From Bacteroidota bacterium (GTDB lineage Bacteria; Bacteroidota; Bacteroidia; AKYH767-A; OLB10), in NCBI GenBank assembly GCA_031423735.1, contig JANPGA010000023.1:1-35166 (forward strand): DNA of 35,166 nt, in the 5' to 3' direction. This document shows positions 4,084 to 30,240 of the stretch, piece by piece. Made by a program: the position numbers and the translations under genes. The notes under the pieces were generated by a model. That model saw nothing but the letters and a program-made list of their open reading frames with translations. It searched no databases and had not been told where the DNA came from. Positions within the stretch are counted from its first letter, which is position 1, and each line of letters opens with the position of its first letter.

Positions 4084-4095
4084 CATAAATAGCTC

Positions 4096-4156
4096 CCCTG
4101 AAGTAGAGTGCAAAAACCCTGAAGTAGAGTGCAAAAACCCTGAAGTAGAGTGCAAA
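4096..4156 (+). repeat. Direct tandem repeat: 21-bp unit CCCTGAAGTAGAGTGCAAAAA, 2 full copies plus a 19-bp third copy
   Basis: Copies at 4096-4116, 4117-4137 and 4138-4156 are identical over the shared length. The third copy runs into the terminator hairpin. Confidence 0.95.
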
Positions 4157-4179
4157 TGCACACACTTCAGGGTTTTTTT
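4138..4179 (+). terminator. Rho-independent terminator downstream of tRNA-Gln
   Basis: ccctgaagt (4138-4146) pairs with acttcaggg (4164-4172). An inner gtgca/tgcac helix adds to the stem, and a T7 run follows (4173-4179). Confidence 0.75.
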
Positions 4180-4192
4180 ATGCTTATATATT

Positions 4193-7945: not shown

Positions 7946-7954
7946 TTAATCATT

Positions 7955-8761: not shown

Positions 8762-8772
8762 TTAATTGAAGT

Positions 8773-10140: not shown

Positions 10141-10226
10141 AATAATTTTGATTATAGATCAAAAGTAGTGTTTCTAACTATACAGTCAAAATGAGTAATA
10201 AAAACTATTTTTAAAAAATGTAGTAA

Positions 10227-11321
10227 CTACGCTCTTGAACCTTGAATGGACTTTTTATTTACTTGTCCACCCATTTTCTTATAAATGTTCGCGAGTTTGG
10301 TCATCACTAAAGTATTGATCGTTATCATTCCTAGGCAAACACTCATTAATAAAAATAGGTTGATATTTAGTTTGCTAAAAACAATTGCCATTCCAACAAA
10401 AATCAAATTTATAATTACAATTATAATTGTTGTAATACGATGCCCAAAGCCTCTCGATCCTATCATATGATGAACATGATTTCTATCTGCTCTAAGAGGA
10501 GAAACGCCTGTTAAAATTCGTATAACACATACTCTTATTACATCATATACAGGAACAAATAAAACAGCAGCAACTAATGCGGGACTAATAATTGATACTT
10601 TAGCATTTGGAATTTCTCTTATATCTAAAAGGTTTATTGCTTGAGTGGCTAATAAAAATCCTAAAATTAAAGAACCTGTATCTCCCATAAATAATTTCGC
10701 GGGATGATAGTTATATTTTAAAAATCCAACTAAAGCACCTGTCATGCAGAACGAAAGGATAGCATAATCAGTATATTCAAACTGGTAAAATAACCAACCA
10801 AATATTAAGGATGCCATAACTCCTAAACTACCTGCCAATCCATCAATCCCATCCACTAAATTGTATGCATTTGTGATACTAACAATAAATAGAATCGTTA
10901 CTGAATATTGTAGCCAAATAGGAATTTCATTTATGCCTAAAAATCCATATAAATTAGTAATACGTATTCCACCAAATACCACAATTGAAGAGGCAATAAT
11001 TTGAAGTGCTAATTTTTTCTTCGCATTCATGTCAAGCAAATCATCAAAAAATCCAGTGAAAAATAAAATCAATGATCCAGCTATTAAATATTGAATAGGC
11101 TGATTTGAAAGTTGCTTACTTAGCAATAAAAAAGAAATAATAATTCCAGCATAAATAGCTAAGCCTCCCATTGTAGGAACACTCTCATGATGCAACTTAC
11201 GGTCATCTGTTTTTTCAAATAAGTTCCACTTTTTACATACATTTATCCACGATGGAATAACCAGCATTGTAATAATTAATGAAATAATAAATGGTAAAAA
11301 TATTGTCATTAGAAAACTCAT
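10227..11321 (-). CDS. MraY/WecA-family (GT4) polyprenyl-phosphate HexNAc-1-phosphate transferase, copy 2 (last gene of the polysaccharide/T9SS block)
   Basis: 364-aa polytopic ORF with NAYNLVDGIDGLAGS, FMGDTGSLILG and FFDD. It is a paralog of 824..1894, alignable by eye over most of its length. It starts 2 nt after the stop of the PorP/OmpA gene. Confidence 0.88.
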   Translation of the reverse strand: MSFLMTIFLPFIISLIITMLVIPSWINVCKKWNLFEKTDDRKLHHESVPTMGGLAIYAGIIISFLLLSKQLSNQPIQYLIAGSLILFFTGFFDDLLDMNAKKKLALQIIASSIVVFGGIRITNLYGFLGINEIPIWLQYSVTILFIVSITNAYNLVDGIDGLAGSLGVMASLIFGWLFYQFEYTDYAILSFCMTGALVGFLKYNYHPAKLFMGDTGSLILGFLLATQAINLLDIREIPNAKVSIISPALVAAVLFVPVYDVIRVCVIRILTGVSPLRADRNHVHHMIGSRGFGHRITTIIIVIINLIFVGMAIVFSKLNINLFLLMSVCLGMITINTLVMTKLANIYKKMGGQVNKKSIQGSRA

Positions 11322-11323
11322 AA

Positions 11324-13183
11324 TTATTGCTTCTTAGTTTTTACTACGTGAATTTCAACTCTTCGATTATGAGCTCGTCCTTGCTCTTCAATATTATTTG
11401 CTATAGGCATTGTTTCGCCGTATGCAACAGTAATAATCCTATCTTCTGTTAATCCCTTTTTAATAAAAATTGCTTTAACAACATCTGCTCGAGCTTGCGA
11501 TAAGTTCATATTAAATGTTGCATCACCTTCACCATCGGTATGTCCTGTAATTACTAATTTATAATTACTATTATAATAAACGCTATCCAGTGCAGGCTCT
11601 ATGATATCTAACTTATAAATACCTCTTACATCGATACTATTTGTAGCGAATTCGATATTTCCACCTGGAACTTCAACAGGAACATTTTCTTCAACTTCAG
11701 GACAACCATTTCCACCCTTTTTACCACCAACAAATGGACAAGGATCTTTTGCATCAGCAATGCCATCATCATCCGAATCAGGACAGCCATGCATTGACAA
11801 CTTTCCTTTTATGTAAGGACACTCGTCAACATTATTCGGAACACCATCATTATCTGAATCAAGAATTATTTCTGTAATTTCAGGAATAGTTGGCGCGATA
11901 ACAGGAATCGGAGTTGTAACAACTGGCTCAATAGTTTTAATTGGAATCTCAACCTTTGGTTTTTCAACGATTTTAGCTACAGGTATTAGTACTGGTATTA
12001 CTGATTTTTTTGTTGGTGCTTTCTTATGATGGGTTCCTGTAGGTTTCCCTGGAATTACTTTCTTAACTTTTGCAGGACATCCTTTCATTTTAAATACACC
12101 AGCAACATCTGGACAAGCATCTTTTTTATCTTCAACACCATCTCCATCACTATCTAAAGGAACAATAACTTCATTTGTTTTGCTGGAAGGTTTTGTATCC
12201 TTCTCTTCTTTCTCCTTCTTAGGAGTTGGCTTAGACTTAACTTTTGCTTTCGGAATATAAGTTAGCGTTAACTCAAAAGCGCCTGGACCACCTGTTAATC
12301 CAGAAACATTTACATCGTAACTAACACCAACCATAAAACTATTCATTTGATAACCTACGTATGCTGAAACCGCGTCATCTTTACGATGGAAAACACCAGC
12401 TTCAACATGTGTTCGTTCTTGCATTGGTAACTTAGCAATAAAACCATACATCAGTTCTTTTGAAAATTGTTGTTGTTGATACATAAACATTGGAATTAAA
12501 TCCAATTGCTCATTTACATGAATTCCAACACCACCTTGCATTACCAATTTCCGAGGAATAATATTTGGTGTTTCAATAAAAGTTTCCTTCGATTGATTAA
12601 TATGTTGAAATGCTGCACCCGCATATGGATGTAGTCTATTGTTCTTTTCTTTACCATATGTCCATAGAAAACCAACACCAAAATCTGGTCGTGTTAATTT
12701 GGTATAAGAAAATGTTTCACTAGTTGGATTAGAAGGATTATACCCTTGATCAGGATTATACTGATCATCAAAAGTCATTTTTGAAGGATCAAAACTTTTT
12801 TGAATTAACCCAACTTGAATCCCGCTTGCTAATTGATGATTACGATAAGAAACACGATAAGATAAAGTTCCATTTACATATAACTGTCGGATACCTGCAT
12901 CGCCAGAAGTGTTATTAATTAATGTTGCTCCTAAACCAACTTTACTAACTTGCTTATCAAAAAATATTGACTGAGTAACAAATGGACTAGTAACACTTGC
13001 CCATTGATTTCGATACAATCCAGTTAATCTAATATGTTCTACATCTTGACCTGTGGAAGCAGGATTATAATAAGTTGGTATCCTATGAAATTGTGTAAAA
13101 TGTGGATCTTGGCCATATACGATTACGACTAGCATAACAAATGCTAATGTGAATTTCGAAATAGATTTTAAGGAATTGATCAT
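11324..13183 (-). CDS. PorP/SprF-family T9SS outer-membrane protein fused to thrombospondin type-3 repeats and a C-terminal OmpA peptidoglycan-binding domain
   Basis: N-terminus ...VYGQDPHFTQFHRIPTYYNPA is the PorP/SprF signature; a beta-barrel-like region runs to ~aa 310. Then come Lys/Pro-rich linkers and three TSP3 motifs (DSDGDGVEDKKDACPD, DSDNDGVPNNVDECP, DSDDDGIADAKDPCP). OmpA_C follows (LVITGHTDGEGDATFNMNLSQARADVV...NRRVEIHV). The start overlaps the stop of the upstream cargo gene (ATGA at 13180-13183). Confidence 0.85.
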   Translation of the reverse strand: MINSLKSISKFTLAFVMLVVIVYGQDPHFTQFHRIPTYYNPASTGQDVEHIRLTGLYRNQWASVTSPFVTQSIFFDKQVSKVGLGATLINNTSGDAGIRQLYVNGTLSYRVSYRNHQLASGIQVGLIQKSFDPSKMTFDDQYNPDQGYNPSNPTSETFSYTKLTRPDFGVGFLWTYGKEKNNRLHPYAGAAFQHINQSKETFIETPNIIPRKLVMQGGVGIHVNEQLDLIPMFMYQQQQFSKELMYGFIAKLPMQERTHVEAGVFHRKDDAVSAYVGYQMNSFMVGVSYDVNVSGLTGGPGAFELTLTYIPKAKVKSKPTPKKEKEEKDTKPSSKTNEVIVPLDSDGDGVEDKKDACPDVAGVFKMKGCPAKVKKVIPGKPTGTHHKKAPTKKSVIPVLIPVAKIVEKPKVEIPIKTIEPVVTTPIPVIAPTIPEITEIILDSDNDGVPNNVDECPYIKGKLSMHGCPDSDDDGIADAKDPCPFVGGKKGGNGCPEVEENVPVEVPGGNIEFATNSIDVRGIYKLDIIEPALDSVYYNSNYKLVITGHTDGEGDATFNMNLSQARADVVKAIFIKKGLTEDRIITVAYGETMPIANNIEEQGRAHNRRVEIHVVKTKKQ

Positions 13184-16125
13184 CGTATTACAGTAATTGA
13201 TCCTGTTAATTCCTTAGTAATATTTGTTTGATCCAAAATGCGTATTCGATAAACATAAGTTGCATTTTGAACATTTTCACCATTTACTTTTCCGTCCCAA
13301 TCAGGTCGAGAAGCATCTGTACAATAAATAAGAGTTCCCCATTGATCATAAATTTTCATTTCTTGAAAAGAAAATTGATCCCCACGAACTCGAAATATAT
13401 CGTTCTTTCCGTCTCCATTAGGACTAAATGTTGTTGGAATAAATAATGAATTATTATTATGAATATTTACAGTTTTAAAAATACTATCACTACATCCATT
13501 TATATTTTTGGAAATCAAAATAACATTAAAATCTCCAGTACTTTGATAAGTATAAACAGGATTCAAATTGTAACTTACATTTCCTGCAATTGTTGTATCA
13601 CCAAAATACCAAACTTGCGAATCTGCATTTGTTGTACTATTCAAAAACACAGTTGGGTAAAGCCCACTTTGAGGAGTAGTTGTTGTTGTAAAACTACAAA
13701 TTGGAGTAGGAAGAGGATCAACATTTAAAACAGCTCTGCCTAATGATCTACATCCGTTAGCACCAATTGATTCAATAAAATAAGAAACAGAACTTGTAAC
13801 AGGAGGTGTTTGATAATTATCTGAAACGAGAAATGATGTTCCTCCAACTGCTTTAGTAAACCATGAAAAACTATTTCCGTTGACATTAGGAATTTGCAAA
13901 TCAACAACAGTTCCTTTGCAAACAGAAGTATCAGAAACATTTGCTAATTGTGGTGCAGAAAAAACAGTAACCAATATTGAATCAGAATAAATAACTCCGT
14001 TTGTTTGTGAAATTCCTACTTTATAATATCCACTATCAGTTGCTAAATATTGCTGACTGGTTGCTCCATTAATTGCTAATCCATTATAAAACCATTGATT
14101 TCCTGTTGGAAAAAGTGAAGATAATTGAACATTATTTCCTTCGCAAAAAGAAGTTACTCCGTTTGCAGTAAGAAGTGAGCTAGAAGCTATAACAATTACT
14201 TGAACAGGTATTGAAGAAACGTTACATCCATTGACTCCAATAGAATTTACAAAATAATTTCCCGCAGTTTTAATATATACTGAGTTTCCAGTTTGTGCAT
14301 TCGACCATTGATAATTACTTCCACCATTTGCAGTTAATAAAATTGAGTCACCTTGGAATATAGTTACTATTCCTGTTGGTGTAATAGTGGGAATTGATAC
14401 TGAAAAATTTGTAATAGCAATTGTAGTTGATTTTGTTGAACATCCAAAAGCATTGGTAACGGTTACGAAATAGGATCCTGCTGGAACTTTAATAGTTTGT
14501 GTGGTTGCACCTGTTGACCAAATCCATGATGAACCAATTGATGCGGTGAGTTGCAAAGAATCATTTGGACAAATGGTAGTGGTTGTAGATGTAATTGTAG
14601 CGATTGGCGACGTTTGAGTTGTAATTACTATTGGTGATGATATGCCTTTACATCCGCTTGAATTTGTGACAGTAACCGAAAACGAACCTGCAGTTGTTAC
14701 ATAAATATTTTGAGTGGTACTATTATTCGACCATAAGTAGGATGATCCTATAGGTGCTGATAATTTAACAGAATCTCCTTGGCATAGCGATGTTCCATTA
14801 CTTGATGATATAACTGGAGTAAATACAGGTAATACCGTAACAGTAACAGTATTTGATGATGCTAAAGCACCATTTGAATCATATGCTGTACAAGTAAGTA
14901 TATGTGATCCTGATGATAATCCAGCAATTGAAACAACACCATTCGCTGAGCTTCCAACAATTGTAGTTCCTTCCTTAAAAGTATAATTTGTTAAACCACT
15001 CGGGCTGGCATTTAAATGAAGACTGTCGCCAAAGCATAAAGAGGAGTTACCAGTATTAGTTAATGAGATTGTAGTTGGAGATTGGAAAGAAACTTTTCGT
15101 ATTAAATGATTATTACAATCCGCTACATATAAACATTTATCGAAAGTATTGAAAGTAATTCCTGCGGCATTATTAAAACGTGCAGCTGCTCCAGTTCCAT
15201 CTACAGATCCACTTAAACCAGGAGTCCCTACATAAGTAGTAACTGCTCCAGCTGAAGATATTTTTCGTATTGTAAAATTATATCCATCTAAAATAAATAT
15301 ATTATTAAAAGCATCAATTGTTACATCCCAAGGATAATTGAATTGCGATGCTAACGCTGTTCCATCTATACTTCCTACAAGTCCTTGCCCTGCGAAAGTT
15401 GTTACCAGACCAGCAGGAGTAATTTTACGTAAAATATTATTCCATTCATCTGCAACGATAATATTAAAATTATTATCAAGTTCAATTCCATAAGGATGAT
15501 TGAAAGTTGCTGCTAAGCCTAGTCCATTAATAGCGCCTGCCACATAAACTGTTCCTGCAAAAGTTGTTGTTTGTCCGTTAAATATTTTACGAATAACGTG
15601 CGTATTATAATCTGCAACATATATTGTGTTCCCATCAGGGGTTACTGTTATACCACTTGAAAAACCAAATTTCGCAACACTATTTGCTCCGTTGGTAGTT
15701 CCAAAAACTCCTGTTCCAGCTATAGTACTAACAACACCTACACTATTTATTTTTCGAATTTTATAACTCTTTGTATCTGCAATGTAAACATTCCCTAAGG
15801 TATCGCATGTAACTCCCCATGGTTCATTAAAAGTAGCAACATTACCAGGTCCATCATTACTTCCTGGTGATCCAGTTCCTGCGAAAGTTGAAACAACACC
15901 AGAAGAATTTATTTTTCTAATTAAATTATTATATCGATCAGCAATATAAACATTACCTAATTTATCGGCAGCAATTCCGTGTGGATTATTAAATCTTGCA
16001 CTAGTTCCATTACCGTTAATATTCCCAACAACTCCAGTACTACCAGCTATGGTAGATACAACTTGACCTTCCGTAACGGAAATACAACTTACAAATATTA
16101 ATAACGAAAGTAAAATTATTCTCAT
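13180..16125 (-). CDS. Large T9SS-secreted surface protein: six NHL repeats, ~6 Ig-like repeats, a PKD domain and a type B (CHU_C / gliding-motility-associated) C-terminal sorting domain
   Basis: Signal peptide MRIILLSLLIFVSC. Six units of the form FNxPxG(I/V)xxDxxGNxY(I/V)ADxxNxxIRKI (aa ~20-347, DNA ~15085-16068). Repeats of C-x-G-D-S-x-x-L...Y-x-W...G-x-Y-x-V-x-V-T-N-x-x-G-C. PKD-like WYFGDTT...YTYQSTGDFNVILISKNINGCSD. C-terminus FIPTTFSPNGDGKNDIFRVRG...KIYDQWGTLIY...WDGKVNGENVQNATYVYRI (DNA ~13183-13458). Confidence 0.88.
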   Translation of the reverse strand: MRIILLSLLIFVSCISVTEGQVVSTIAGSTGVVGNINGNGTSARFNNPHGIAADKLGNVYIADRYNNLIRKINSSGVVSTFAGTGSPGSNDGPGNVATFNEPWGVTCDTLGNVYIADTKSYKIRKINSVGVVSTIAGTGVFGTTNGANSVAKFGFSSGITVTPDGNTIYVADYNTHVIRKIFNGQTTTFAGTVYVAGAINGLGLAATFNHPYGIELDNNFNIIVADEWNNILRKITPAGLVTTFAGQGLVGSIDGTALASQFNYPWDVTIDAFNNIFILDGYNFTIRKISSAGAVTTYVGTPGLSGSVDGTGAAARFNNAAGITFNTFDKCLYVADCNNHLIRKVSFQSPTTISLTNTGNSSLCFGDSLHLNASPSGLTNYTFKEGTTIVGSSANGVVSIAGLSSGSHILTCTAYDSNGALASSNTVTVTVLPVFTPVISSSNGTSLCQGDSVKLSAPIGSSYLWSNNSTTQNIYVTTAGSFSVTVTNSSGCKGISSPIVITTQTSPIATITSTTTTICPNDSLQLTASIGSSWIWSTGATTQTIKVPAGSYFVTVTNAFGCSTKSTTIAITNFSVSIPTITPTGIVTIFQGDSILLTANGGSNYQWSNAQTGNSVYIKTAGNYFVNSIGVNGCNVSSIPVQVIVIASSSLLTANGVTSFCEGNNVQLSSLFPTGNQWFYNGLAINGATSQQYLATDSGYYKVGISQTNGVIYSDSILVTVFSAPQLANVSDTSVCKGTVVDLQIPNVNGNSFSWFTKAVGGTSFLVSDNYQTPPVTSSVSYFIESIGANGCRSLGRAVLNVDPLPTPICSFTTTTTPQSGLYPTVFLNSTTNADSQVWYFGDTTIAGNVSYNLNPVYTYQSTGDFNVILISKNINGCSDSIFKTVNIHNNNSLFIPTTFSPNGDGKNDIFRVRGDQFSFQEMKIYDQWGTLIYCTDASRPDWDGKVNGENVQNATYVYRIRILDQTNITKELTGSITVIR

Positions 16126-17315
16126 GCTACAATCGTATTGTTTTCCACATTTGAAATAACTTTCTCTTCATGTTGATTAGCTACTTTTTCGGTTAACAAA
16201 TCAACAACTGACATGTCGGTTCCTTCGAAAGCCATTGCATACATATTTGTAACTCTTTTCCAAGTATATTTTTCCTTTGCAAACTTTTCTAGTTTTGATG
16301 AAATTTCGAATTTCTTAAAATTATCTAGGGTATCGATAATATTTAACAATTCCTCAGCATTTCTAAAATAAACAGTATCATGATTGGTAGTTTCTCGATT
16401 GTAGGAAATATTAAACGCTACAACACATAATCCTAATCCCATTGCTTCAACTAGTGAAGGATTTGTACCTCCTGCACTATGCCCATGAATATATAAAGAA
16501 GCGTTCGATCTAATAATATTTAATTCAGTTTGATTATAAATTGGATCTAGCAGATGTATATTTGAAAAGGTCGAATATTTATTTTTTAATTGAACACCAT
16601 AATTTCCATGGTCCCATAATCCAACAATAACTAATGTTTGATTTGGTCGATTTGAATATGCTTCAAGAATTAAATCCACATTGTTTTCGGGTTCGATTCT
16701 ACAAACATTAAAAGCATAAGGTTTTGAAAGAAAACTATATTTTTGAATTGCTTCGGAAGTCCTTTTTTCTTTTACTACATGATCTGATCCATATTCAATC
16801 AACCATGTATCTTTACGTTTATAGCGATCCTCTACATATTCACGAATGATTCGATTATCTGCAATAACAATATCAGAAAGTTGTACAGCTAATTTTTCAC
16901 AAAAACGAAGTGTCTTCTTTGCAAACCAATTCCATTTCGGACGCTTCCATTCTTGACCGTCAATATTTACTAAAATAGGTTTATTTGTAAATAATTTTAC
17001 AAAAGGAAGAATCATTGCACCAGAAACTCCTAGTAATAAAAGTACATCGCTATTTCTTATTGCGTGAATTACTGAGCAGATATCATAAATTATACTTTGA
17101 TAACCATTTGCATTAAAAGGTAGATAAACAAGTTTAGCACCATTAAAAGTAGTAGGTCGGGATTGCTTTTTAGCAAAATACTTTTCACTACAATAAACAG
17201 TAATGTCGAATCGCGTATTTAAACGATCAACGAGATGATGTGCTAAAGTTTCGAACCCGCCATATTTTGCTGGTAAGCCTGTTGTGCCTATAATTGCAAC
17301 GCGTTTATTCCGCAT
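16122..17315 (-). CDS. GT4-family glycosyltransferase with DUF1972-type N-terminal domain (WchF/GacB/RgpA-like second-sugar, often rhamnosyl, transferase)
   Basis: N-terminus VAIIGTTGLPAKYGGFETLAHHLV matches the IGxRGxPAxYGGFETF signature I recall for DUF1972. C-terminal GT1 domain HGHSAGGTNPSLVEAMGLG. The stop overlaps the cargo gene start (ATGA at 16122-16125). Sugar specificity is not determinable from sequence. Confidence 0.8.
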   Translation of the reverse strand: MRNKRVAIIGTTGLPAKYGGFETLAHHLVDRLNTRFDITVYCSEKYFAKKQSRPTTFNGAKLVYLPFNANGYQSIIYDICSVIHAIRNSDVLLLLGVSGAMILPFVKLFTNKPILVNIDGQEWKRPKWNWFAKKTLRFCEKLAVQLSDIVIADNRIIREYVEDRYKRKDTWLIEYGSDHVVKEKRTSEAIQKYSFLSKPYAFNVCRIEPENNVDLILEAYSNRPNQTLVIVGLWDHGNYGVQLKNKYSTFSNIHLLDPIYNQTELNIIRSNASLYIHGHSAGGTNPSLVEAMGLGLCVVAFNISYNRETTNHDTVYFRNAEELLNIIDTLDNFKKFEISSKLEKFAKEKYTWKRVTNMYAMAFEGTDMSVVDLLTEKVANQHEEKVISNVENNTIVA

Positions 17316-17593
17316 CTTTGATAAGGTAGTTTCTTAAGGTTTTGATCTTATCATTATACTGCAAAACGATAAAATTGGCTATGAAAAAAAGCAGAAAAAA
17401 CACTTTTGTAAGATTATTAAAAAAATGAAGTGGTTTTTTGATTCACCTTACTGAGATTACGTCGTTAAATACTTCAAAGAATAATATTATTTACTTTTCC
17501 ATGCTAAAATAAAATGTAAGGTTTTAAATCTATTTGTTCACTTTTCATGATATTGCAAGCAAAAATATAATCTTCACAATACCTTACATTAAA

Positions 17594-18682
17594 TTATAAA
17601 AATTGAATTGCAGAGTTTACTTGCTCTTGAAGAACTGATGATTTGAATTTACTTGCAGTTATTTTGGCACCTATTGATAAATCTGAACAAATAGAACTAT
17701 TTGAAGATATATTATCAATAACTTCATCTAATTCCTTTACCTTTCTTACATCAATGGTATAGCCATTCAAACCAGTTTTTACAAATTCGGAAGGGCCTCC
17801 AACGGGTGGAGCAATAACAGGAACACCATAGCACATCGCCTCCAATAATGTTAATCCGAAGGTTTCAATACACCGAGCAGGATTAGTAAGATTTACAACA
17901 AGACTAGCTCGCTGATAAAATGGATGTAAATCCTTTTGTACTGAGAAAATTTGTAAATTAAATGGAAGATCTTCATACACAAAATAATGCTGAACCTCAA
18001 GCTCCGATGCATTTAAAACTAATTCGAATTTCAATGCAGGATGACGATGAGCTAATGATAAAAATTCATGAACTCCCTTGTACGTTTTGAGAGAACAAAC
18101 CATTAAGATGCAAAATTTTTCTGGTTGAACTTGGTGATAGCTATATGTTTCAGATTGGCTTACGAATTCATCTGGAAGAGCATTATAAACAACTTGAGAT
18201 TTTACATTCTTTAGGTGCTCAACTTCTGATAAATAATTAGAAACATATAATACAGTATTCGCAGTTGATGATGCTACATATTTTAAAAACATCTTTAAAG
18301 GTTTTGGTCGAATATAACTTTCATGCAAATGATACATTACCTTTTTACCCATTAATTTACCTGATAATGCAGCACCAAAAGGTAACAGTGTATTAACATA
18401 AATAATTACATCTTCATTTCGATATTTTAGTAATTGAAAAAATAGTATTAATTGGCTGAATAAAAAAAGAAATAATCTTCCAATCATATTGGAAACAAAA
18501 TGATAAGGAAAGTAAACTATTTTACATTGGATTCTTGACAAAAAACCTTCGCGATTTTTTGATGTATGTAATACAATTTCATGACCTGCTTTTTGTAATC
18601 CTTCTAATGCTTGAGTAAACACCAAAGGACTTCCGCTAAAGTCGTTTAATAGATGAACTGCTATTATTTTTTTTGATTTCAT
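17594..18682 (-). CDS. GT4/GT1-family glycosyltransferase
   Basis: 362 aa. The C-terminal ETFGLTLLEAMCYGVPVIAPPVGGPSEFV contains the EX7E motif of retaining GT-B enzymes. Confidence 0.85.
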   Translation of the reverse strand: MKSKKIIAVHLLNDFSGSPLVFTQALEGLQKAGHEIVLHTSKNREGFLSRIQCKIVYFPYHFVSNMIGRLFLFLFSQLILFFQLLKYRNEDVIIYVNTLLPFGAALSGKLMGKKVMYHLHESYIRPKPLKMFLKYVASSTANTVLYVSNYLSEVEHLKNVKSQVVYNALPDEFVSQSETYSYHQVQPEKFCILMVCSLKTYKGVHEFLSLAHRHPALKFELVLNASELEVQHYFVYEDLPFNLQIFSVQKDLHPFYQRASLVVNLTNPARCIETFGLTLLEAMCYGVPVIAPPVGGPSEFVKTGLNGYTIDVRKVKELDEVIDNISSNSSICSDLSIGAKITASKFKSSVLQEQVNSAIQFL

Positions 18683-18688
18683 TAAAAT

Positions 18689-19948
18689 CTAACTTGCTTT
18701 TTGCATTAATGAATCATATACATCTCGTAATCGTTCTCCTTTTAAATTCCAATCGAATTTCTCTATAAATGTATTTCTTGCCCCTTGTGATAATTCAATA
18801 TATCTAACTTTATCTTTATAAAGTAGATTTAACGCTGCAGCAAATTGTGTGATACTGGAATCATATCTTCCATAGGCGACAGAAATACCACAACTAGCAT
18901 CCACAAACTCTCCTGGACCTTCGTTTTTAAAACACAAAACTGGAACACCATAGGAAAGTGCTTCCGCTACTACCATTCCAGCTCCTTCATGTGATGGAAA
19001 TAAGAATACTTTTGATTGCGTATATAATTTTCTGAAGTCGCTACGATGTAACCATTCAATAAACTGAACAGCATTTCCAAGCTCTAATTCTTTAACTAAT
19101 CTTTTCAAATACTCCTTTTGAGGACCATCACCCACTAGTATTAATTTAGTTTTAATTCGATCATTAATTGGAAGCTGATGATAAAAACGAGAAAATGATT
19201 TTATAGTAATATCAAAACCTTTTAATGGCACAAATCGTCCTGCGGATAAAACTGTAAATCCATCGCTTGATAAATTACTTGGCATCAATGACAATGGAGC
19301 TTCAGAACTTACCGAAGGCATATGAATCGTTTGTTTAAGAGAAAGGTGCAAAAGTTTTGCAACCGTTGAATTCATTGTCAATACAGCATCTGCATGATTT
19401 ATAGTTTGTCGAAGGAAAGGATCGACATTCCAAAAATATTTTTTTAACAACCATTTTAACTGTTCAATGATATATGCTTTACGACCATAAACATGCAATA
19501 CATAATCCTTAGGAATTCGTGGATGATGACCAATGGGGCCCCAAACAAATGGCTTATTTAAAATCCATAATCGTGAAGGAGTCCAATCATTATGAAAATT
19601 TAGATTGTGAACAATATCAAAATCTAGTTTCTTTCGTCGAATATAGTAAGGTAAAAAATATTGCCACAAATAATAATATGGCAAAGCTCCTCTACTTCCT
19701 TTCTTCCAAAATCGCATCCAATACGGAAGATCAAAATAAACAAACTGAATATTTGCATAACATGATGATGGATGTTCCTGCATATATTGTTCAATATTTT
19801 TTCGTGTGTTTTTACGCACCACGGCAATTATTTTATTGAACCTTGCAATTTGAATTATAAAATTCCATCCCATACCATCTTCCGAACCATGATATGGATT
19901 TACTGCATATGCACTTAATAAAATTGTATTTGTTTTTTCCAATGACAT
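18689..19948 (-). CDS. GT4/GT1-family glycosyltransferase
   Basis: 419 aa. SHEGAGMVVAEALSYGVPVLCFKNEGPGEFV (EX7E). N-terminal SAYAVNPYHGSEDGMGWNF is common in EPS glycosyltransferases. Confidence 0.85.
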   Translation of the reverse strand: MSLEKTNTILLSAYAVNPYHGSEDGMGWNFIIQIARFNKIIAVVRKNTRKNIEQYMQEHPSSCYANIQFVYFDLPYWMRFWKKGSRGALPYYYLWQYFLPYYIRRKKLDFDIVHNLNFHNDWTPSRLWILNKPFVWGPIGHHPRIPKDYVLHVYGRKAYIIEQLKWLLKKYFWNVDPFLRQTINHADAVLTMNSTVAKLLHLSLKQTIHMPSVSSEAPLSLMPSNLSSDGFTVLSAGRFVPLKGFDITIKSFSRFYHQLPINDRIKTKLILVGDGPQKEYLKRLVKELELGNAVQFIEWLHRSDFRKLYTQSKVFLFPSHEGAGMVVAEALSYGVPVLCFKNEGPGEFVDASCGISVAYGRYDSSITQFAAALNLLYKDKVRYIELSQGARNTFIEKFDWNLKGERLRDVYDSLMQKAS

Positions 19949-19963
19949 GGTATTTATTTTAGA

Positions 19964-20695
19964 TTATCCTACCAACTTTAAGGCTAGCGGTATGGAATCA
20001 ACTGAATCTCTAAACCGAATTACTTTTGCAGGTACTCCTCCAATTACTGCATTTGCAGGCATACTTTTCGTAACCACTGCACCTGCAGCAATGACACAAT
20101 TTTCACCAATAATAACACCATCGAGAATAGTAACTTTTGCTCCAATCCAACAATTTCTATTAATGTGAATTCCTTTTCTACTTACTGATTGCAATCTAAT
20201 AAGTTTGTCATGTTCATTAAACGAATGATTCTCCGGATGACAACTAAAATAAGGTCCAATTATACAATCATCATCGATTGTAAGTCCGCCTGCACCACCT
20301 AAATGAGCAAACTCACCAATCCCCACATGTTTACCTATTCGAATAAAATCGCCTAAATCATTAAATGAAAAAGAAACTTTTAAATACGTATTTCCTCCTA
20401 TCCATGAATGATCATTAATAAATAATCCTTTCTTACCAAAAGCATTTACTTGAACATCATTACCAATTTGAACAGCTTTACCATATTTAAATTGTTTTTT
20501 ACCTTGAATGAAAACATTTCTTCCAATGAAAATGAAATTTTTATTTCCACTACGAATCATTAAAATTATACCTCTTAAAAGTGCTATGAACTTATTGAAC
20601 AAAAAAGGCCATAATATTCCGTTACTTACATTATCATTGATTGTAAATAATGGATTCTTCTTTTGACCGAAGTAAATAACAATTCTTCGAATCAT
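19964..20695 (-). CDS. Left-handed beta-helix (hexapeptide-repeat) O-acetyltransferase, WcaF/maltose-acetyltransferase-like
   Basis: Hexapeptide repeats NCWIGAKVTILDGVIIGENCVIAAGAVVTKSMPANAVIGGVPAKVI. The track start at 20779 is a TTG and overlaps the upstream gene by 83 nt. The ATG at 20695 (MIRRIVIYFG...) lies 1 nt after the upstream stop and is preferred. Confidence 0.85.
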   Translation of the reverse strand: MIRRIVIYFGQKKNPLFTINDNVSNGILWPFLFNKFIALLRGIILMIRSGNKNFIFIGRNVFIQGKKQFKYGKAVQIGNDVQVNAFGKKGLFINDHSWIGGNTYLKVSFSFNDLGDFIRIGKHVGIGEFAHLGGAGGLTIDDDCIIGPYFSCHPENHSFNEHDKLIRLQSVSRKGIHINRNCWIGAKVTILDGVIIGENCVIAAGAVVTKSMPANAVIGGVPAKVIRFRDSVDSIPLALKLVG

Positions 20696-20696
20696 G

Positions 20697-21452
20697 TTAA
20701 ATTTTCCAGAAAGTAGTTTGACATACAAAAAATGCCATTGGGCAAAAACCTGTGAACTTATGCATCTCTCTCCATTCAACTAATTCTGCGCCGCCCCAAT
20801 TAACAGGATTGTCGCTGTTATCTAATACCAGCCATCCTCCTGGTTTTACTTTTTTCAATGCTGCACGAATACAATCATTACGACGTGTAAAATCATTCAT
20901 TGAATCGATAAGTACTACATCATAGTATTCATTCTCCAATCTCTTAAGATCTGTAATTGCATCTGTACCTTGCATTACATTTAGATTGAATCGATTTTCA
21001 TTATACTTACCGGGATTTGAATGAACAGTTTTAATAATCATTTGTGCCCAATCAACATTATGTTCGTAAGTAGTAAGATTTACGCCTTTCTCTAAAAACC
21101 ATAATGAGCTATTTCCTCCACCAAGTTCCAATACTCGCATTCCTGGTCGCACTAATTTTTCTAAAAATTTAATTGCATCCAATACAATAAATGGAACAGG
21201 ATTTTTCATAATAGGAGACTTACGCGCTTGAAAATATGTTTTAACAACATATGGTAAACGAGCAACACTGTATAAAGAAGGGAAATTTCCTTCATAATCT
21301 GTAAAGCGTAAACTGGCTTTCAACTGCTCAACATGGCCGTCATCACATTCCCATTTTAATGTTGTACGACCTAATAATTTATCAATAATTGGTTTTTCAT
21401 AACTTGATTTAACCGTTTTTGCATTTGGTGGTGTAAAGTCTTGACGTTTCAT
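20697..21452 (-). CDS. Class I SAM-dependent methyltransferase
   Basis: 251 aa. Motif I MRVLELGGGNSSLW, motif II-like YDVVLIDS, and GGWLVLDN. Confidence 0.8.
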   Translation of the reverse strand: MKRQDFTPPNAKTVKSSYEKPIIDKLLGRTTLKWECDDGHVEQLKASLRFTDYEGNFPSLYSVARLPYVVKTYFQARKSPIMKNPVPFIVLDAIKFLEKLVRPGMRVLELGGGNSSLWFLEKGVNLTTYEHNVDWAQMIIKTVHSNPGKYNENRFNLNVMQGTDAITDLKRLENEYYDVVLIDSMNDFTRRNDCIRAALKKVKPGGWLVLDNSDNPVNWGGAELVEWREMHKFTGFCPMAFFVCQTTFWKI

Positions 21453-21477
21453 AGTTATAATTTAGTGTTACTTAATA

Positions 21478-22782
21478 TTAAAGTGCTGCCGAAATACATT
21501 GTTTCATTACAATATCTAATGTAAGATTGAGATCTGTATTATTAATGACCATATATCTCTGTGTTTTACTGCCTTTACTTAATTCATCGAACAACTCTCT
21601 ATATTCTGCAGTTAATGATTGAATATCCTCACTACTGAGTTCTCGCTTTCTACTTAAAATGATTTCAGGTGCTGCATATAGAAACACATTAACATTTGGT
21701 TTGAAAAGAAAATAATAGAATAGTTTAAGAAAACTTTTAGGAAGAACAATATTCGATCTCTTCGAATCAATGATAAAATCAAAATAATAACGATCGTATA
21801 AAACTGTATATCCTCTAAAAGTGTATCTGAAATAAATATAGAATTGCCCAAATAAATAATCTAAGTAGTAATAGGCAAATCGAAACAAGGAACTAATTTT
21901 ACTATTATTTTTCCCTTGTCGAGGAAGTACTTCTGTTGTTTTTCGCTCTGCATTTTGCTTACCATAACGGATTGAACTTAAAATTGGAAGTATAGATGGG
22001 CGGTGACGTAGTACAACAACTCGTTGACGATATTTCATCTGCAAACTTTGTCGTACACTTTCTAATATAGTAGATTTTCCGGAACCATCAACGCCACTAA
22101 AAGTGACAATTATTCCTCGGTTATGTATTAGATCACGAATTACATCGGTTAAATATCTTAATGTATTTAAAAACCTAAAAAAGTTACGATTTCCCGGTTG
22201 AAGTTTTATTGACTCAACTATTTTTTTTGAATCCTTACCTGTGTGTGAAAACAATTCATCTAATATGTTTAAAGTTAGCTTATATTTATGACATATATAT
22301 CCAAATATTTCTCTTCTTTCTTCAACATTAAATGATGAAAAATATTGAACATATCGATCAGGAGTATTTGCTCCATTAATTAAATTAAATAAAATAACAT
22401 ATTCAAACATATGTTTGATAGAAGAAACAGAAACACCTTCAGCCGTTTCTTTAGAATGTTTTAAAATATCCTTTGCATCGAGATAAATTACGCCTTTTCG
22501 ATCAAAACGATGTATCAGATCAACTTCTAAATAAGTACCATCTTTAAAAGAAATATTAACAAACGTTACAAACGATTTTTTATATAAGTGTACCCATTCA
22601 ATATTTCGACCATTTCTAATTATTTGAATAAAATTTTTTCTATCCTTTTGTTTAATCAATAAATCAATATCCGATGTTTCGGGAATTTCATCAATACTTT
22701 TATAAGTAAATTTTAGCATTGCATAATGAAACTCACTTGCAGCGCTAAAGAAATTATGAAGAAATTCTTGGCGATTGTTCAT
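21478..22782 (-). CDS. Two-domain protein: N-terminal Pol-beta-type nucleotidyltransferase-like domain fused to a thymidylate/deoxynucleoside-kinase-like P-loop domain. Function unknown.
   Basis: N-terminal ETSDIDLLIKQKD ... YLEVDLIHRF resembles the DxD / DxH pattern of uncharacterised NTases (PF14907-like, from memory). C-terminal half IIVTFSGVDGSGKSTILESV is a GxDGxGKST P-loop; a Tyr/Phe-rich segment and a lid-like SRKRE follow. Confidence 0.6.
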   Translation of the reverse strand: MNNRQEFLHNFFSAASEFHYAMLKFTYKSIDEIPETSDIDLLIKQKDRKNFIQIIRNGRNIEWVHLYKKSFVTFVNISFKDGTYLEVDLIHRFDRKGVIYLDAKDILKHSKETAEGVSVSSIKHMFEYVILFNLINGANTPDRYVQYFSSFNVEERREIFGYICHKYKLTLNILDELFSHTGKDSKKIVESIKLQPGNRNFFRFLNTLRYLTDVIRDLIHNRGIIVTFSGVDGSGKSTILESVRQSLQMKYRQRVVVLRHRPSILPILSSIRYGKQNAERKTTEVLPRQGKNNSKISSLFRFAYYYLDYLFGQFYIYFRYTFRGYTVLYDRYYFDFIIDSKRSNIVLPKSFLKLFYYFLFKPNVNVFLYAAPEIILSRKRELSSEDIQSLTAEYRELFDELSKGSKTQRYMVINNTDLNLTLDIVMKQCISAAL

Positions 22783-24167
22783 ATACTTGAAGCCGGATTG
22801 TCAGCAATATGTGTTGATTCTTCTAATGCTTCAAGCCAAGCATCCATCATCCATTGACTCTGAACCAATAACTCTTTTTCATTGATATATTGTCGTAAAT
22901 AATAACTGACATTAAACAATAAATACAAATTAAAATGTAATAACGAATTAATTTTATATTTATAAACGAGTTGTTTTATTAGAGGAGTTTGTTGCCAATT
23001 ACAAATGTTTTTCATAACTTCATCATATCCTTTTCTTTGTTGAAGTATTGTAGATTGAAAAGTAAAATGAAAAAGATCAAACAACATAGGAATACCGTTC
23101 CTTGCTAATTCCCAATCATAAACATATAATCGCTGGTCATCACAATACATATTCCATGGAGTAAAATCTCCATGAGAAACAGAGACTGGAATTTCATCTG
23201 CAACAGAAATTACATTATATAATTTTTTTAAGAGATATATAATTCGCTTTGTTTGATTTGAATTTAATCCATTGTTAAAAAGCATCTCTTGTTTTAGGAA
23301 TTCCATATTATTGGTAATCGTAATCCAAGCTGAGGTTTCAAAAATTAGTTTTCGTTCATGACTGATATTATAGAGTTCGGCAAGAGCTTTTGAATGAATA
23401 GCTGTTATACGATCGGCGGAAATAATTATTCCAGGCTTCACATTACTAATTCGAGCATTCCCATTTATCTTTTTTGACAAGGTTGGAAGACTCAAAGTAG
23501 TGAAGTCGTATTTTCCTAATGATGCTAGCATATCAATTTCGTTTTGTACTAGTTTTTTTGATGTATCAGTAACAGGAATTTTAACGAAACCCATACAGGT
23601 TTTACCTTTATGTATTTCCATTACAGCTTTCCTTGTAGCTCCTCTTGTTCCAGTAAAGAATGAAACTGTTTCATCCACTTCAATACCGTATTGTTGTTTT
23701 ACTTGATTTATCAAATTTTGTTGCAGATATATTGTTCCTGATACCAACCTGTTACCTTGACCAAATGTCCATGCTAAATGGCTAATCTGTTTATACAATT
23801 TTCCTTTCCAAGTTCCTGTATTATAAAGAGATAGGTATCCAGCTACATTTGAATTCGCTGGGAAAATCCATCGAATAGTTCCATCTGAATTATTGATAAA
23901 AAAGTACTTTACAGTGTCATTATTGGAAGAACTCCCAAGTAAAAGTGCATTTCCTGTCTTTTGAAAAGAGCATCCATCAATTGCTAAATCAATATAAAAT
24001 GCTGAATTATTATCTTCAACTAAAGGTTCTTGTAACAATTTAAAATTGCTTTTGAAAACTCCTGTAAGTCGGTGAAAAGGATCGAAGATGGCTAGCTCCA
24101 TTTTATTAGGAGCAAATACATCACGAAGTAATATTAAATCAGAAAGATAAATGGGGGTTGATTGCAT
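22779..24167 (-). CDS. APH/choline-kinase-fold phosphotransferase with an unassigned ~170-aa N-terminal extension
   Basis: Brenner motif VSHGDFTPWNM (HxDxxxxN), then the metal-binding YVYDWELA. N-lobe-like GTRGATRKAVMEIHKGKTCMGFVKIP...QNEIDML. 4-nt overlap with the downstream gene; the Wzy-like gene upstream overlaps it by 29 nt. Confidence 0.7.
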   Translation of the reverse strand: MQSTPIYLSDLILLRDVFAPNKMELAIFDPFHRLTGVFKSNFKLLQEPLVEDNNSAFYIDLAIDGCSFQKTGNALLLGSSSNNDTVKYFFINNSDGTIRWIFPANSNVAGYLSLYNTGTWKGKLYKQISHLAWTFGQGNRLVSGTIYLQQNLINQVKQQYGIEVDETVSFFTGTRGATRKAVMEIHKGKTCMGFVKIPVTDTSKKLVQNEIDMLASLGKYDFTTLSLPTLSKKINGNARISNVKPGIIISADRITAIHSKALAELYNISHERKLIFETSAWITITNNMEFLKQEMLFNNGLNSNQTKRIIYLLKKLYNVISVADEIPVSVSHGDFTPWNMYCDDQRLYVYDWELARNGIPMLFDLFHFTFQSTILQQRKGYDEVMKNICNWQQTPLIKQLVYKYKINSLLHFNLYLLFNVSYYLRQYINEKELLVQSQWMMDAWLEALEESTHIADNPASSI

Positions 24168-25425: not shown

Positions 25426-25436
25426 TTTTAGTAGTA

Positions 25437-26579: not shown

Positions 26580-26665
26580 AATCTGCTTATTATACGTCGT
26601 ATTTATTTTTTAGTTTAGCTAAAGATTGCCAATTCAAAAAATAATAGAACAAAAATTAATTTTAA

Positions 26666-27928: not shown

Positions 27929-27934
27929 ATATTA

Positions 27935-30238: not shown

Positions 30239-30240
30239 AA

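Follow-up and report, generated by a model that had tools for sequence, protein, structure and literature searches.

Cargo of the T9SS that carries a type-B C-terminal sorting domain (CTD) raises the question of how it is anchored, and of what makes some of this cargo static. Type-B CTDs have been proposed to remain uncleaved and bound to a PorP-like protein (PMC9143113, PMC10202324), which is held to be the anchor of type-B cargo (PMC9143113), and for static cargo a tether composed of PorP-like and PorE-like (OmpA_C) proteins has been modelled (PMC9143113, PMC12618676). The closest described systems are the cargo/SprF-like/PorE-like operons of F. johnsoniae (Fjoh_3952/3951/3950) and the PG1035-PorP-PorE complex of P. 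gingivalis (PMC12618676, PMC9143113). The locus described here likewise places a type-B cargo beside a PorP/SprF-like partner, and it shares with these systems an OmpA_C-type peptidoglycan-binding module through which the complex is predicted to be static and wall-tethered. It differs from both in that the PorP barrel and OmpA_C form one polypeptide, joined by TSP3 repeats, and in that the pair is embedded in a polysaccharide-priming operon instead of an adhesin operon of its own.

The four-gene module and its neighbours

The window, i.e. the whole analysed stretch of 35,166 nucleotides, contains on its minus strand four genes whose coordinates, order and identities are those given by the first-pass annotation; the open reading frames match exactly and domain searches agree. 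From upstream to downstream the region comprises:

17594..30996, minus strand: Wzx/Wzy-type polysaccharide locus, from Pfam annotation
17316..17593, minus strand: intergenic gap upstream of the module, 278 bp, candidate promoter/operator region
16122..17315, minus strand: DUF1972-type GT4 glycosyltransferase (GT), 397 aa, candidate second-sugar transferase
13180..16125, minus strand: T9SS type-B cargo, 981 aa, NHL/Ig/PKD domains and type-B CTD
11324..13183, minus strand: PorP/SprF::TSP3::OmpA partner, with barrel, repeats and OmpA_C
10227..11321, minus strand: WecA/MraY-family polyprenyl-phosphate sugar-1-phosphate transferase (initiating PGT), 364 aa
8773..10140, minus strand: secreted M28 peptidase, from a Pfam M28 match and a signal peptide

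The GT/cargo junction (16125-16122) reads gtagcATGAgaa and the cargo/PorP junction (13183-13180) reads atacgATGAtca, both being ATGA overlaps, and the PorP/PGT junction (11323-11319) reads TAAttATG, a 2-nt gap. Read directly in the window sequence, these junctions are as annotated before, and they give the four genes the operon-type coupling that had been claimed. The co-directional block likewise has the described 15 genes, from 30996 to 10227, and the 278-bp gap ahead of the module is its largest, all other gaps being at most 86 nt. A terminator scan from 8500 to 19000 gave zero terminator-like sites on the coding strand. Rfam, applied to the whole window, had a tRNA at 4013-4083 as its sole match, with no known RNA in the 278-bp gap.

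The cargo consists of a signal peptide (residues 1-19), an NHL propeller (20-348), Ig/PKD-like domains (349-892) and the type-B CTD (893-981), and its Pfam and NCBIfam domains are NHL repeats, Ig_7, PKD and CHU_C. The N-terminus, MRIILLSLLIFVSCISVTEG/Q, has the features of a Sec signal peptide, with a helix at 2-14 in the structural model, and Gln21 does not vary among 69 orthologues. The sorting domain is recognised by TIGR04131 (66.6 against a cutoff of 35, residues 896-981) and PF13585 (62.4 against 27), and Pfam and NCBIfam searches gave no type-A CTD match (PF18962/TIGR04183) in the cargo. With its type-B CTD the protein falls outside A-LPS-type anchoring, in which a type-A CTD is cleaved by PorU and the cargo linked to anionic LPS. 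The AF2 model (mean pLDDT 88) has a six-bladed NHL propeller on a stalk of ~7 Ig/PKD-like beta-sandwich domains. In Foldseek searches the stalk resembled the GhpA fibre (best structural match, E = 3e-30) and the head resembled non-enzymatic NHL propellers. Conservation within the cargo is highest in the head and the CTD, and full-length orthologues (~980 aa) are 41-73% identical. A lactonase-, lyase- or arylesterase-type enzyme was considered for the head and rejected, the corresponding Pfam matches being weak and partial and the best sequence and fold matches being non-enzymatic propellers; the head looks like a ligand-binding module, not an enzyme. Core T9SS genes are absent from the window, and type-A CTD proteins encoded on related contigs suggest that the lineage has a T9SS.

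The partner protein starts with a PorP/SprF barrel (residues ~1-315; TIGR03519, 182.4 against 90.55; PF11751, 155.6 against 22.3). A Lys/Pro-rich linker bearing thrombospondin type-3 (TSP3) Ca-binding repeats (~340-490; DSDGDGVEDKKDAC at 344, DSDDDGIADAKDPC at 469; TSP_3, 34.2) joins the barrel to OmpA_C (~500-619; PF00691, 55.2 against 27.2, residues 538-607). PorE has TPR, beta-propeller and CRD domains that are absent here, so the protein is not a PorE orthologue. Judged by its domains, the PorP::OmpA_C fusion is predicted to supply a complete protein-based anchor to peptidoglycan. In every locus with enough downstream flank the PorP gene comes next after the cargo gene, usually with a -4 overlap.

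Among the flanking enzymes, the GT contains DUF1972 (PF09314, 93.9 against 25) and Glycos_transf_1 (PF00534, 44.2 against 26.4) domains and has orthologues of 53-76% identity; among NCBIfam models it best matches the Cps2T beta-1,4-rhamnosyltransferase (NF046071), with 199 bits where the equivalog cutoff is 500. The PGT has a Glycos_transf_4 domain (PF00953, 144.7 bits) and intact catalytic motifs (DDLLD at 93, NAYNLVDGIDG at 151, LFMGDTGS at 210). PF00953 together with these DDxxD, NxxNxxDGIDG and xFMGDxGS motifs places it in the WecA/MraY family; the assignment is one of family membership, the score for WecA proper (TIGR02380) being 150.6 with a cutoff of 326. A second WecA-like PGT is encoded in the window at 824-1894, so the PGT that brackets the cargo pair is not unique.

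The upstream genes are in the order Wza, Wzc, Wzx-like, GT4, Wzy, APH-like, TMK-like, methyltransferase, hexapeptide transferase, GT4, GT4. Wza is identified by PF02563, Wzc by Wzz, GNVR and P-loop, and Wzy by PF04932 (57.2 against a cutoff of 31.7). For Wzx the window gives a weak call (PF01943, 22.4, below the cutoff of 28.2); the orthologue in locus L005 is recorded with PF01943, the match in L166 being faint. With Wza, Wzc, Wzy and, weakly, Wzx present, this is a Wzx/Wzy-dependent locus with Wza/Wzc export.

Recurrence and origin of the arrangement

The order GT-cargo-PorP/OmpA-PGT with -4/-4 overlaps was found in ~24 distinct species-level loci, in which the cargo is 44-69% identical and both the overlaps and the upstream gap are kept. 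The comparative synteny of the four proteins, put forward earlier as a check, thus shows a recurring order, and the module also occurs in stand-alone form: in L080/L081 it has no surrounding Wzx/Wzy locus, and near the L080 module there is no flippase, polymerase or other GT. Further contexts are L120, in which DUF1972 is followed by an NHL protein, L041, which has cargo-PorP-PGT with unrelated genes upstream, and L085, in which Wzx<Wzc<Wza<PorP::OmpA<NHL-CHU_C is divergent from DUF1972>PGT and the cargo is a short NHL form. L085 belongs to a neighbouring clade in which other cargo adjoins the same GT/PGT pair: two species (L082/L164) have, within a nonulosonic-acid locus, an LRR type-B cargo after the PGT-GT pair, and L084 has a PKD type-B cargo beside the pair. 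A 364-aa ORF after the LRR cargo was considered as a divergent PorP and rejected, having no Pfam match; its two terminal TM helices around a coiled coil correspond to a Wzz/PCP-like topology. Near unrelated type-B cargo, Wza, Wzc, GT or PGT genes occurred in 0 of 33 loci (tblastn E <= 1e-10, at most 10 kb away, on contigs some of which are short). Because the order recurs, stands alone in L080, and other type-B cargo adjoins the same GT/PGT pair, the adjacency does not appear to be accidental.

In neighbour-joining trees, calculated without support values, every locus with the cargo pair between GT and PGT falls in one clade of the GT tree. This clade includes no locus without the pair, DUF1972-cargo-PorP is its most stable sub-unit, and the order of the upstream locus is kept; the steady pairing of GT and PGT within it is consistent with a priming role. 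A neighbouring clade on the GT tree has the same upstream order at 24-56% identity (GT4a-Wzy-APH-TMK-Hex-GT4b-GT4c-gap-DUF1972, then PGT) with no cargo pair, and in cargo-less loci the PGT starts 1-11 nt after DUF1972 (42 nt in L119). Since the cargo-between loci form one clade and the same locus occurs without cargo in a neighbouring one, the pair appears to have entered by a single insertion, and the ~24 species, all descending from that event, are not independent observations. The first-pass annotation had regarded an identical locus without the cargo pair in close relatives as the mark of a simple insertion; such loci exist in the neighbouring clade, and none lies in the cargo clade itself. 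All genomes are MAGs, so that absences hold for the contigs seen and not for whole genomes. The MAGs come from activated-sludge, soil and freshwater habitats.

Parts of the module have also been lost. The PGT is missing beside it in four species (L006, L011, L012, L043), and in class II (L019, L020, L024, L025) Wza, the stretch from Wzx to DUF1972, and the PGT are deleted at the same chromosomal site. Class II keeps cargo and PorP, with an NHL head as conserved as elsewhere and no relaxation; L022 was grouped with this lineage on a contig too short for the far flank. In both class II and class III, GT and PGT are missing and the cargo is intact and conserved, and in class III, more weakly in class II, the cargo pair stands at the 3' end of the same locus in reduced form. 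Classes II and III were considered as ancestral arrangements and rejected as such, with evidence given for class II: it is nested inside class I on the cargo tree and shares both chromosomal flanks with the window, which makes it a derived deletion. Since cargo-less loci exist and the pair persists in class II, which has lost the biosynthesis genes, neither partner seems to need the other.

Downstream of the cargo pair, the gene that recurs most constantly is that of the M28 peptidase, at 39-138 nt (up to 657 nt, in L006) from the last gene of the module (PGT or PorP) in most loci of classes I-III. It is absent beside L005, L031 and L080, and may be co-transcribed with the module. The lineage conserves further neighbours outside the operon (CN-hydrolase and aminotransferase on the M28 side; dUTPase, NTP-transferase and TPR on the other side), and with these equally kept, some of the conservation is simple inheritance.

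The gaps orthologous to 17316..17593 are mostly 215-430 bp long, a few being shortened to 72-124 bp. In 30 gaps of the cargo clade the hexamer CTTACA/TGTAAG occurs 48 times against 4.0 +/- 1.9 expected, a 12-fold enrichment, and the gaps of cargo-less loci show none. The sites in the window are CTTACA at 17412-17407 (97 nt before the GT start), CCTTACA at 17521-17515 and TGTAAGG at 17588-17582. In one subclade the hexamer lies inside gAACCTT-N16/17-TCGTAc, which is ECF-sigma-promoter-like.

Functional readings of the linkage

The explanation that we favour, tentatively and with slightly less than even confidence, is that the module encodes a static adhesin fibre that is co-transcribed with polysaccharide priming enzymes from a clade-specific promoter, the tie being regulatory. 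The ancestral unit would have been a two-gene operon of DUF1972-GT and WecA-like PGT, which would prime the polysaccharide of an old, unusually conserved Wzx/Wzy locus. The cargo and its cognate PorP/SprF would have been inserted once between these genes in the ancestor of a single uncultured lineage of Bacteroidia and retained there through selection for co-expression, and the four genes would now be transcribed together from a promoter of their own in the 278-bp gap. The product would be a ~980-aa fibre with an NHL head on a stalk of ~7 Ig-like domains. Once the fibre has been exported by Sec and translocated by the T9SS, the uncleaved type-B CTD would stay on the PorP-like barrel, whose periplasmic tail (TSP3 Ca-binding linker and OmpA_C) is expected, from its domains and the published model, to bind peptidoglycan. 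The fibre would thus be a static wall-tethered adhesin projecting through or into the polysaccharide layer. With primer and fibre made together, coat and adhesin would appear jointly, and the tie to GT and PGT would be regulatory rather than a covalent or biosynthetic dependence.

Among the alternatives, a neutral insertion is unlikely, at roughly half the weight of the favoured explanation. The pair would have landed by chance in the GT-PGT operon and have no functional relation to the polysaccharide, with overlapping frames and a generally syntenic chromosome hindering its removal. Such an event agrees with the single origin on the GT tree, the orthologous cargo-less loci of the neighbouring clade, the equal synteny of unrelated flanking genes, and a cargo pair that outlives the in-place deletion of the locus with its head still conserved. 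It does not readily account for a linkage that survives several independent rearrangements into new contexts (L080, L085, L120, L041), for LRR and PKD heads beside the same GT/PGT pair in the neighbouring clade, for the lack of such adjacency in the 33 background loci, or for a conserved clade-specific motif upstream of the module. The earlier claim of a functional tie as opposed to chance adjacency is supported with regard to the linkage, which recurs and is not seen in the background, and is unsupported with regard to a glycan requirement.

More doubtful is a role as lectin or organiser, in which the NHL head would bind or trim the polysaccharide of the locus and so tether polymer to the wall via PorP::OmpA, or bring about cohesion between cells. 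No extracellular part of the cargo is more conserved than the head, whose propeller fold is typical for ligand binding, the pair stands consistently at the 3' end of this locus family or beside Wza/Wzc, and the RemA lectin with its polysaccharide and capsule-anchoring lectins would be comparable cases. However, class II, which has lost the neighbouring biosynthesis genes, shows the same degree of head conservation, the LRR and PKD cargo of the neighbouring clade have unrelated heads, and Pfam, NCBIfam and Foldseek searches of the cargo gave no carbohydrate-binding or catalytic signature.

On comparative genomics, glycan dependence is currently the less likely reading, and we regard it as improbable that the lipid-linked disaccharide of PGT and DUF1972-GT glycosylates the cargo or anchors it covalently; it is just as improbable that this disaccharide is a dedicated substrate which modifies the cargo or the PorP::OmpA anchor, by glycosylation or as a glycan tether. 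The stand-alone L080 module without flippase, polymerase or other GT nearby, the stability of DUF1972-cargo-PorP in a GT clade never seen without the pair, and the precedents of A-LPS anchoring and CTD N-glycosylation (PMC11611037, PMC10202324) speak for it, as do D-[ST]-[AILVMT] sequons, of which the cargo has 8 against 3.8 +/- 2 expected, four being kept in >85% of orthologues. These sequons, however, fall within the generic GDS motif of the Ig domains and would fit a general Bacteroidota O-glycosylation system, GT-PGT pairs also occur alone or in loci without cargo, and the type-B CTD has been proposed to escape cleavage and to remain on the PorP-like protein (PMC9143113, PMC10202324). The glycan anchoring or glycosylation suggested by the first-pass annotation found no support, since the cargo-less clade, the loss of the adjacent PGT in four species and of GT and PGT in classes II and III, the anchoring already provided by the PorP::OmpA fusion, and the second PGT do not indicate a biochemical glycan requirement; the loss of the adjacent PGT is in itself indecisive either way, as the paralogue in the window could compensate. 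The idea is now directly testable, and if it were true, the L080 module would be a self-contained glyco-adhesin cassette, and type-B T9SS cargo would have its first described glycan requirement.

For the favoured co-expressed fibre, the long retention of the pair in a priming operon and the other cargo types that adjoin the same enzymes suggest that in some environmental Bacteroidia the production of a surface fibre and that of an extracellular polysaccharide are regulated as one unit. Such co-regulation bears on floc and biofilm formation in activated sludge, soil and freshwater. With regard to type-B anchoring, the natural PorP::OmpA_C fusion backs the model of a PorP and PorE tether and offers a compact system for testing it.

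Relation to other surface and polysaccharide systems

In streptococci, priming pairs are formed by the WecA-type GacO and the DUF1972 rhamnosyltransferase GacB, and also include Cps2T/WchF. By analogy with GacO/GacB, the WecA/MraY-family PGT and the DUF1972 GT4 of the window would jointly make a lipid-linked disaccharide primer. Differences are that both window enzymes score below equivalog cutoffs, and that they belong to a Gram-negative host, which exports by Wzx/Wzy and Wza/Wzc.

RemA of F. johnsoniae is, according to the title of Shrivastava 2012 as cited in PMC10202324, a T9SS-secreted surface lectin. Whereas RemA is mobile and has a type-A CTD and a recognisable lectin domain, the cargo of the window is without lectin signature. 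The proposed fibre would share with RemA its delivery as a surface adhesin by the T9SS, and the function of RemA is reportedly tied to the cell's own secreted polysaccharide, with a dependence on RemC, Wza and Wzc. To our knowledge, RemA is not encoded within a polysaccharide locus.

The PEP-CTERM/EpsH exosortase system (PMC1569441) similarly combines a C-terminal sorting domain with a genomic and regulatory link to EPS and a conserved upstream cis-site. NHL-repeat PEP-CTERM proteins exist as well, and ScyF gave a weak match in the NCBIfam search. Since that system uses another sorting signal and machinery (exosortase, not T9SS) and occurs in other phyla, it serves as an analogy only.

The grappling-hook fibre GhpA of Aureispira (PDB 9flp, 9fly, 9flw) is, like the stalk of the cargo, a long extracellular fibre of tandem beta-sandwich domains from Bacteroidota. 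GhpA has ~5000 aa or more, with solved fragments that reach residue 5009, and forms hooks for predation, whereas the cargo of the window has 981 aa and an NHL-propeller head; the likeness between the two is structural.

Genes and proteins of the module

The first-pass annotation described four minus-strand genes (the module, 10227-17315) and a 278-bp gap upstream of them. The ORF listing, Pfam/NCBIfam searches and junction sequences bear out its coordinates, gene identities and junctions.

Genes of the module, in gene order
16122-17315, minus strand: DUF1972-type GT4 glycosyltransferase (DUF1972 GT), 397 aa; Pfam/NCBIfam DUF1972 and GT1
13180-16125, minus strand: cargo, 981 aa; Pfam/NCBIfam NHL repeats, Ig_7, PKD and CHU_C
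11324-13183, minus strand: PorP::OmpA partner, 619 aa; Pfam/NCBIfam PorP_SprF, TSP_3 and OmpA
10227-11321, minus strand: WecA/MraY-type transferase (PGT), 364 aa; Pfam Glycos_transf_4

The junctions read ATGA, ATGA and TAAttATG in this order, and a terminator scan found no terminator-like hairpin on the coding strand. The gap (17316-17593) is the sole sizeable one in a block of 15 genes that opens with Wza, Wzc and a Wzx-like gene. In NCBIfam, the cargo and its partner score above the cutoffs of TIGR04131 (T9SS type-B sorting domain) and TIGR03519, respectively. The best NCBIfam matches of the enzymes, Cps2T beta-1,4-rhamnosyltransferase for the DUF1972 GT and WecA for the PGT, lie under the cutoffs of these models; on inspection of the sequence the catalytic motifs of the PGT are intact. 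The cargo, the PorP::OmpA protein and an M28 peptidase encoded downstream each carry a signal peptide followed by Gln.

An AF2 model of the cargo, built from an alignment of 69 sequences (mean pLDDT 88), begins with a signal peptide and a six-bladed propeller (20-348), continues with about seven beta-sandwich domains and ends in the CTD. In Foldseek the stalk matched the Aureispira fibre GhpA, and the head matched the NHL propellers of SOQ1, NHLRC2, TRIM71 and teneurin, which are binding modules, not enzymes. Conservation is higher in the head (60%) and the CTD (64%) than in the stalk (41-50%). In the partner, the PorP barrel is joined to OmpA_C by a Lys/Pro-rich linker of variable length with TSP3 Ca-binding repeats; orthologues are between 549 and 745 aa long, and the one from locus L020 gave no Pfam match to OmpA. 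Judged from its domains, the fusion is predicted to form a complete protein-based tether for the cargo.

The motif D-[ST]-[AILVMT] is that of the general O-glycosylation system of Bacteroidota. The cargo (13180-16125) contains 8 such sequons, with 3.8 +/- 2 expected; those at residues 108, 593, 715 and 880 are conserved in >75% of the 69 orthologues (three of the four in >85%), and the conserved sequons lie mostly inside the GDS motif of Ig-like domains.

Recurrence of the gene order and the GT tree

Full-length cargo orthologues (~980 aa, 45-69% identity) are numerous and all come from uncultured Bacteroidota, the relatives being MAGs or metagenomic contigs throughout; with each GTDB species represented by a single genome, a scan recovered them in about 37 species. 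The synteny comparison proposed in the first-pass annotation had a positive outcome: the order GT-cargo-PorP/OmpA-PGT recurs in about 24 distinct class I loci, although the species of this clade (cargo-between, see below) are non-independent observations. Context look-ups at 69, 57, 53, 50 and 46% cargo identity gave the same order, ...GT4-Wzy-APH-like-TMK-like-MT-Hex-GT4-GT4-[gap]-DUF1972-cargo-PorP/OmpA-PGT.

Layouts of the cargo loci, drawn from ORF-level maps
Class I: complete four-gene order; overlaps mostly -4/-4
Class Ib (L006, L011, L012, L043): without PGT
Class II (L019, L020, L022, L024, L025): Wzc-like gene, 242-aa ORF, cargo, PorP, M28; without GTs and without PGT
Class III (L035, L044): Wzc, APH C-half homologue, TMK N-half homologue, GT4, cargo, PorP
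Other (L041): cargo-PorP-PGT downstream of unrelated genes

The class I PGT mostly starts 3-14 nt after the preceding gene (up to ~85 nt), and the upstream gap is conserved, usually at 215-430 bp. The class Ib locus L043 has an IS transposase immediately upstream of the GT. A second PGT of the WecA/MraY family is encoded in the window at 824-1894 on the plus strand (356 aa, PF00953 136.9 bits); it shares 44% identity with the PGT of the module and could substitute for it where the latter has been lost. In control loci with unrelated type-B cargo, no Wza, Wzc, GT or PGT was found within up to 10 kb (0/33). The frames of cargo, PorP::OmpA or M28 are split in some MAG loci (L037 at about 10001-12939; the PorP region of L016 and L014; M28 in L004), which may be pseudogenes or assembly/frameshift errors.

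Downstream of the cargo pair, i.e. the cargo and PorP::OmpA genes, the neighbour that varies least across classes I, II and III is the gene for the secreted M28 peptidase (8773-10140, minus strand). It usually lies 39-138 nt downstream of the module's last gene (up to 657 nt in L006), and is absent beside the stand-alone module L080 and in L005 and L031.

A neighbour-joining tree of 107 GTs, without support values, was based on DUF1972 GT homologues with their contexts and 80 metagenomic loci, labelled with locally built HMMs and tblastn searches with the window proteins. Three neighbouring clades were distinguished. Every DUF1972-cargo-PorP(-PGT) locus falls in the first, cargo-between, where the stand-alone module L080/L081 branches at the base. 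The immediate neighbours of the four genes in L080/L081 are a response-regulator/HATPase gene and a penicillin amidase; GlnRS and FolB lie further upstream, and the surroundings contain no Wzx/Wzy locus. In the second, cargo-less clade (L083, L086-L092, L098, L108-L112, L115, L119, L121, L125), the PGT directly follows DUF1972 with a spacing of 1-11 nt (42 nt in L119); most of these loci have the same polysaccharide locus upstream, GT4a-Wzy-APH-TMK-Hex-GT4b-GT4c, at 24-56% identity, often with APH-TMK as a fusion of 790-900 aa. The third clade is rearranged.

Loci of the rearranged clade
L082/L164: HisK-PGT-DUF1972-LRR/CHU_C cargo-Wzz-like ORF-nonulosonic-acid genes; 73% GT identity
L084: PKD/CHU_C cargo-DUF1972-PGT
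L085: Wzx<Wzc<Wza<PorP::TSP3::OmpA<NHL/CHU_C, divergent from DUF1972>PGT
L120: PGT<>DUF1972-NHL protein
L114: without cargo

Among remoter DUF1972 GTs, which come from gut and marine samples, an adjacent PGT is very rare (L113 and L140 are the exceptions), and none has a type-B neighbour. From these clade contexts we infer that the ancestral unit is the GT-PGT pair, closing an old, conserved polysaccharide locus, and that the NHL cargo pair was inserted once between GT and PGT. The same locus without the cargo pair, which the first-pass annotation regarded as the mark of a simple insertion, is seen in the neighbouring clade, yet type-B cargo still recurs beside the GT/PGT pair, in several different layouts.

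Two-component genes (histidine kinases, hybrid kinases, stand-alone receivers) lie right beside DUF1972-PGT pairs in several lineages (L080, 7776-8900; L082, 6119-7531; L083, 11336-11833; L084, 4946-6697; L085, 10157-13024), and an ORF that follows the PGT in L088, L098, L119 and L125 (about 168 aa) is listed among them. The window contains no such gene.

The upstream gap and the polysaccharide locus

The element CTTACA/TGTAAG occurs in 48 copies in 30 gaps of the cargo clade, with 4.0 +/- 1.9 expected (12-fold enrichment); gaps from loci that lack cargo show no enrichment.

Copies of the conserved element in the window gap
17412-17407, minus strand
17521-17515, minus strand
17588-17582, minus strand

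The proximal copy lies 49-97 nt upstream of the GT start codon. In one subclade the element sits within gAACCTT-N16/17-TCGTAc, which resembles an ECF-sigma promoter; the subclade of the window carries AAAATCTTACAA at -97. Conservation and enrichment of this motif support the view that the module would be a specifically regulated transcription unit.

Gene content and order of the Wzx/Wzy locus (window 17594-30996; L001-L044, L086-L121) are constant across lineages at 24-56% protein identity, whereas capsule/O-antigen loci are normally hypervariable, which suggests that environmental Bacteroidia widely share a conserved polymer. Two conserved proteins are encoded at 21478-24167 (minus strand) by genes that overlap by 4 nt: one is APH-like (462 aa), and the other, of 434 aa (constant within about 1 aa across species), has a thymidylate-kinase-like P-loop C-terminus; other lineages have a single fused ORF (L086-L092, L098, L112). 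The listed TTG start of the hexapeptide-transferase ORF (19964-20779, minus strand) overlaps the methyltransferase gene by 83 nt; its orthologues are annotated with 216-250 aa, so translation probably begins at a later codon. Likewise, a GNAT acetyltransferase ORF (4073-4735, plus strand), listed with a TTG start, overlaps a tRNA gene (4013-4083, plus strand; Rfam 63 bits) by 11 nt, and this ORF too probably starts further downstream.

Nature of the tie and comparison with known systems

The reading that we favour, with somewhat less than even confidence, is that the cargo is a static adhesin fibre tethered to the cell wall, that it is co-transcribed with both priming enzymes, and that the tie is regulatory. 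Retention of a neutral insertion through operon inertia and general synteny is rather unlikely, but the class II loci count in its favour and limit the claim of a functional tie. Class II is nested inside class I on the cargo tree and has both chromosomal flanks in common with the window (L019, L020, L024 and L025 compared with 31293-35163 and 6776-10140): one flank holds dUTPase, NTP-transferase and TPR (54-80% identity), the opposite one M28, CN-hydrolase and aminotransferase. By this nesting and these flanks, class II is the window's chromosomal site from which Wza, the stretch from Wzx to DUF1972 and the PGT have been deleted; it has kept the Wzc-like gene (39% identical), the cargo pair and the 242-aa ORF, which has weak similarity to the APH C-half. 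The lineage therefore preserves non-operonic synteny as well, and part of the class I conservation is simple inheritance.

That the head binds or organises the polysaccharide of the locus is an unlikely explanation. Identity of the NHL head to that of the window is 63% in class II and 66% in the class I sister group, with head/stalk ratios of 1.49 and 1.37, and by these values the head is equally conserved in both. Dependence of the cargo on the lipid-linked disaccharide, the glycan link proposed in the first-pass annotation, is improbable: although a stand-alone four-gene module exists and every locus of the cargo clade on the GT tree has the cargo pair, the idea is weakened by PGT-less and GT-less lineages that retain intact, conserved cargo, by GT-PGT loci without cargo, and by the proposed anchoring of type-B cargo by PorP-like proteins, which the PorP::OmpA fusion would already supply.

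As to the components of the favoured static fibre and its priming enzymes, type-B cargo with an adjacent PorP/SprF gene, the PorE-like tether and WecA + DUF1972 priming pairs are already described. An incomplete literature check, covering T9SS papers and reviews, found no description of a PorP::OmpA_C fusion, of a priming operon in a conserved Wzx/Wzy locus with a type-B cargo pair embedded in it, or of other type-B cargo recurring beside the same GT/PGT pair. EPS-associated protein sorting has been described for PEP-CTERM proteins (PMC1569441). For static type-B cargo, anchoring through PorP-like and PorE-like (OmpA_C) proteins has been proposed, and five F. johnsoniae operons encode such cargo/PorP-like/PorE-like trios (PMC9143113, PMC12618676). 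Unlike in these trios, the PorP-like and PorE-like anchoring functions are fused in the partner encoded in the window.
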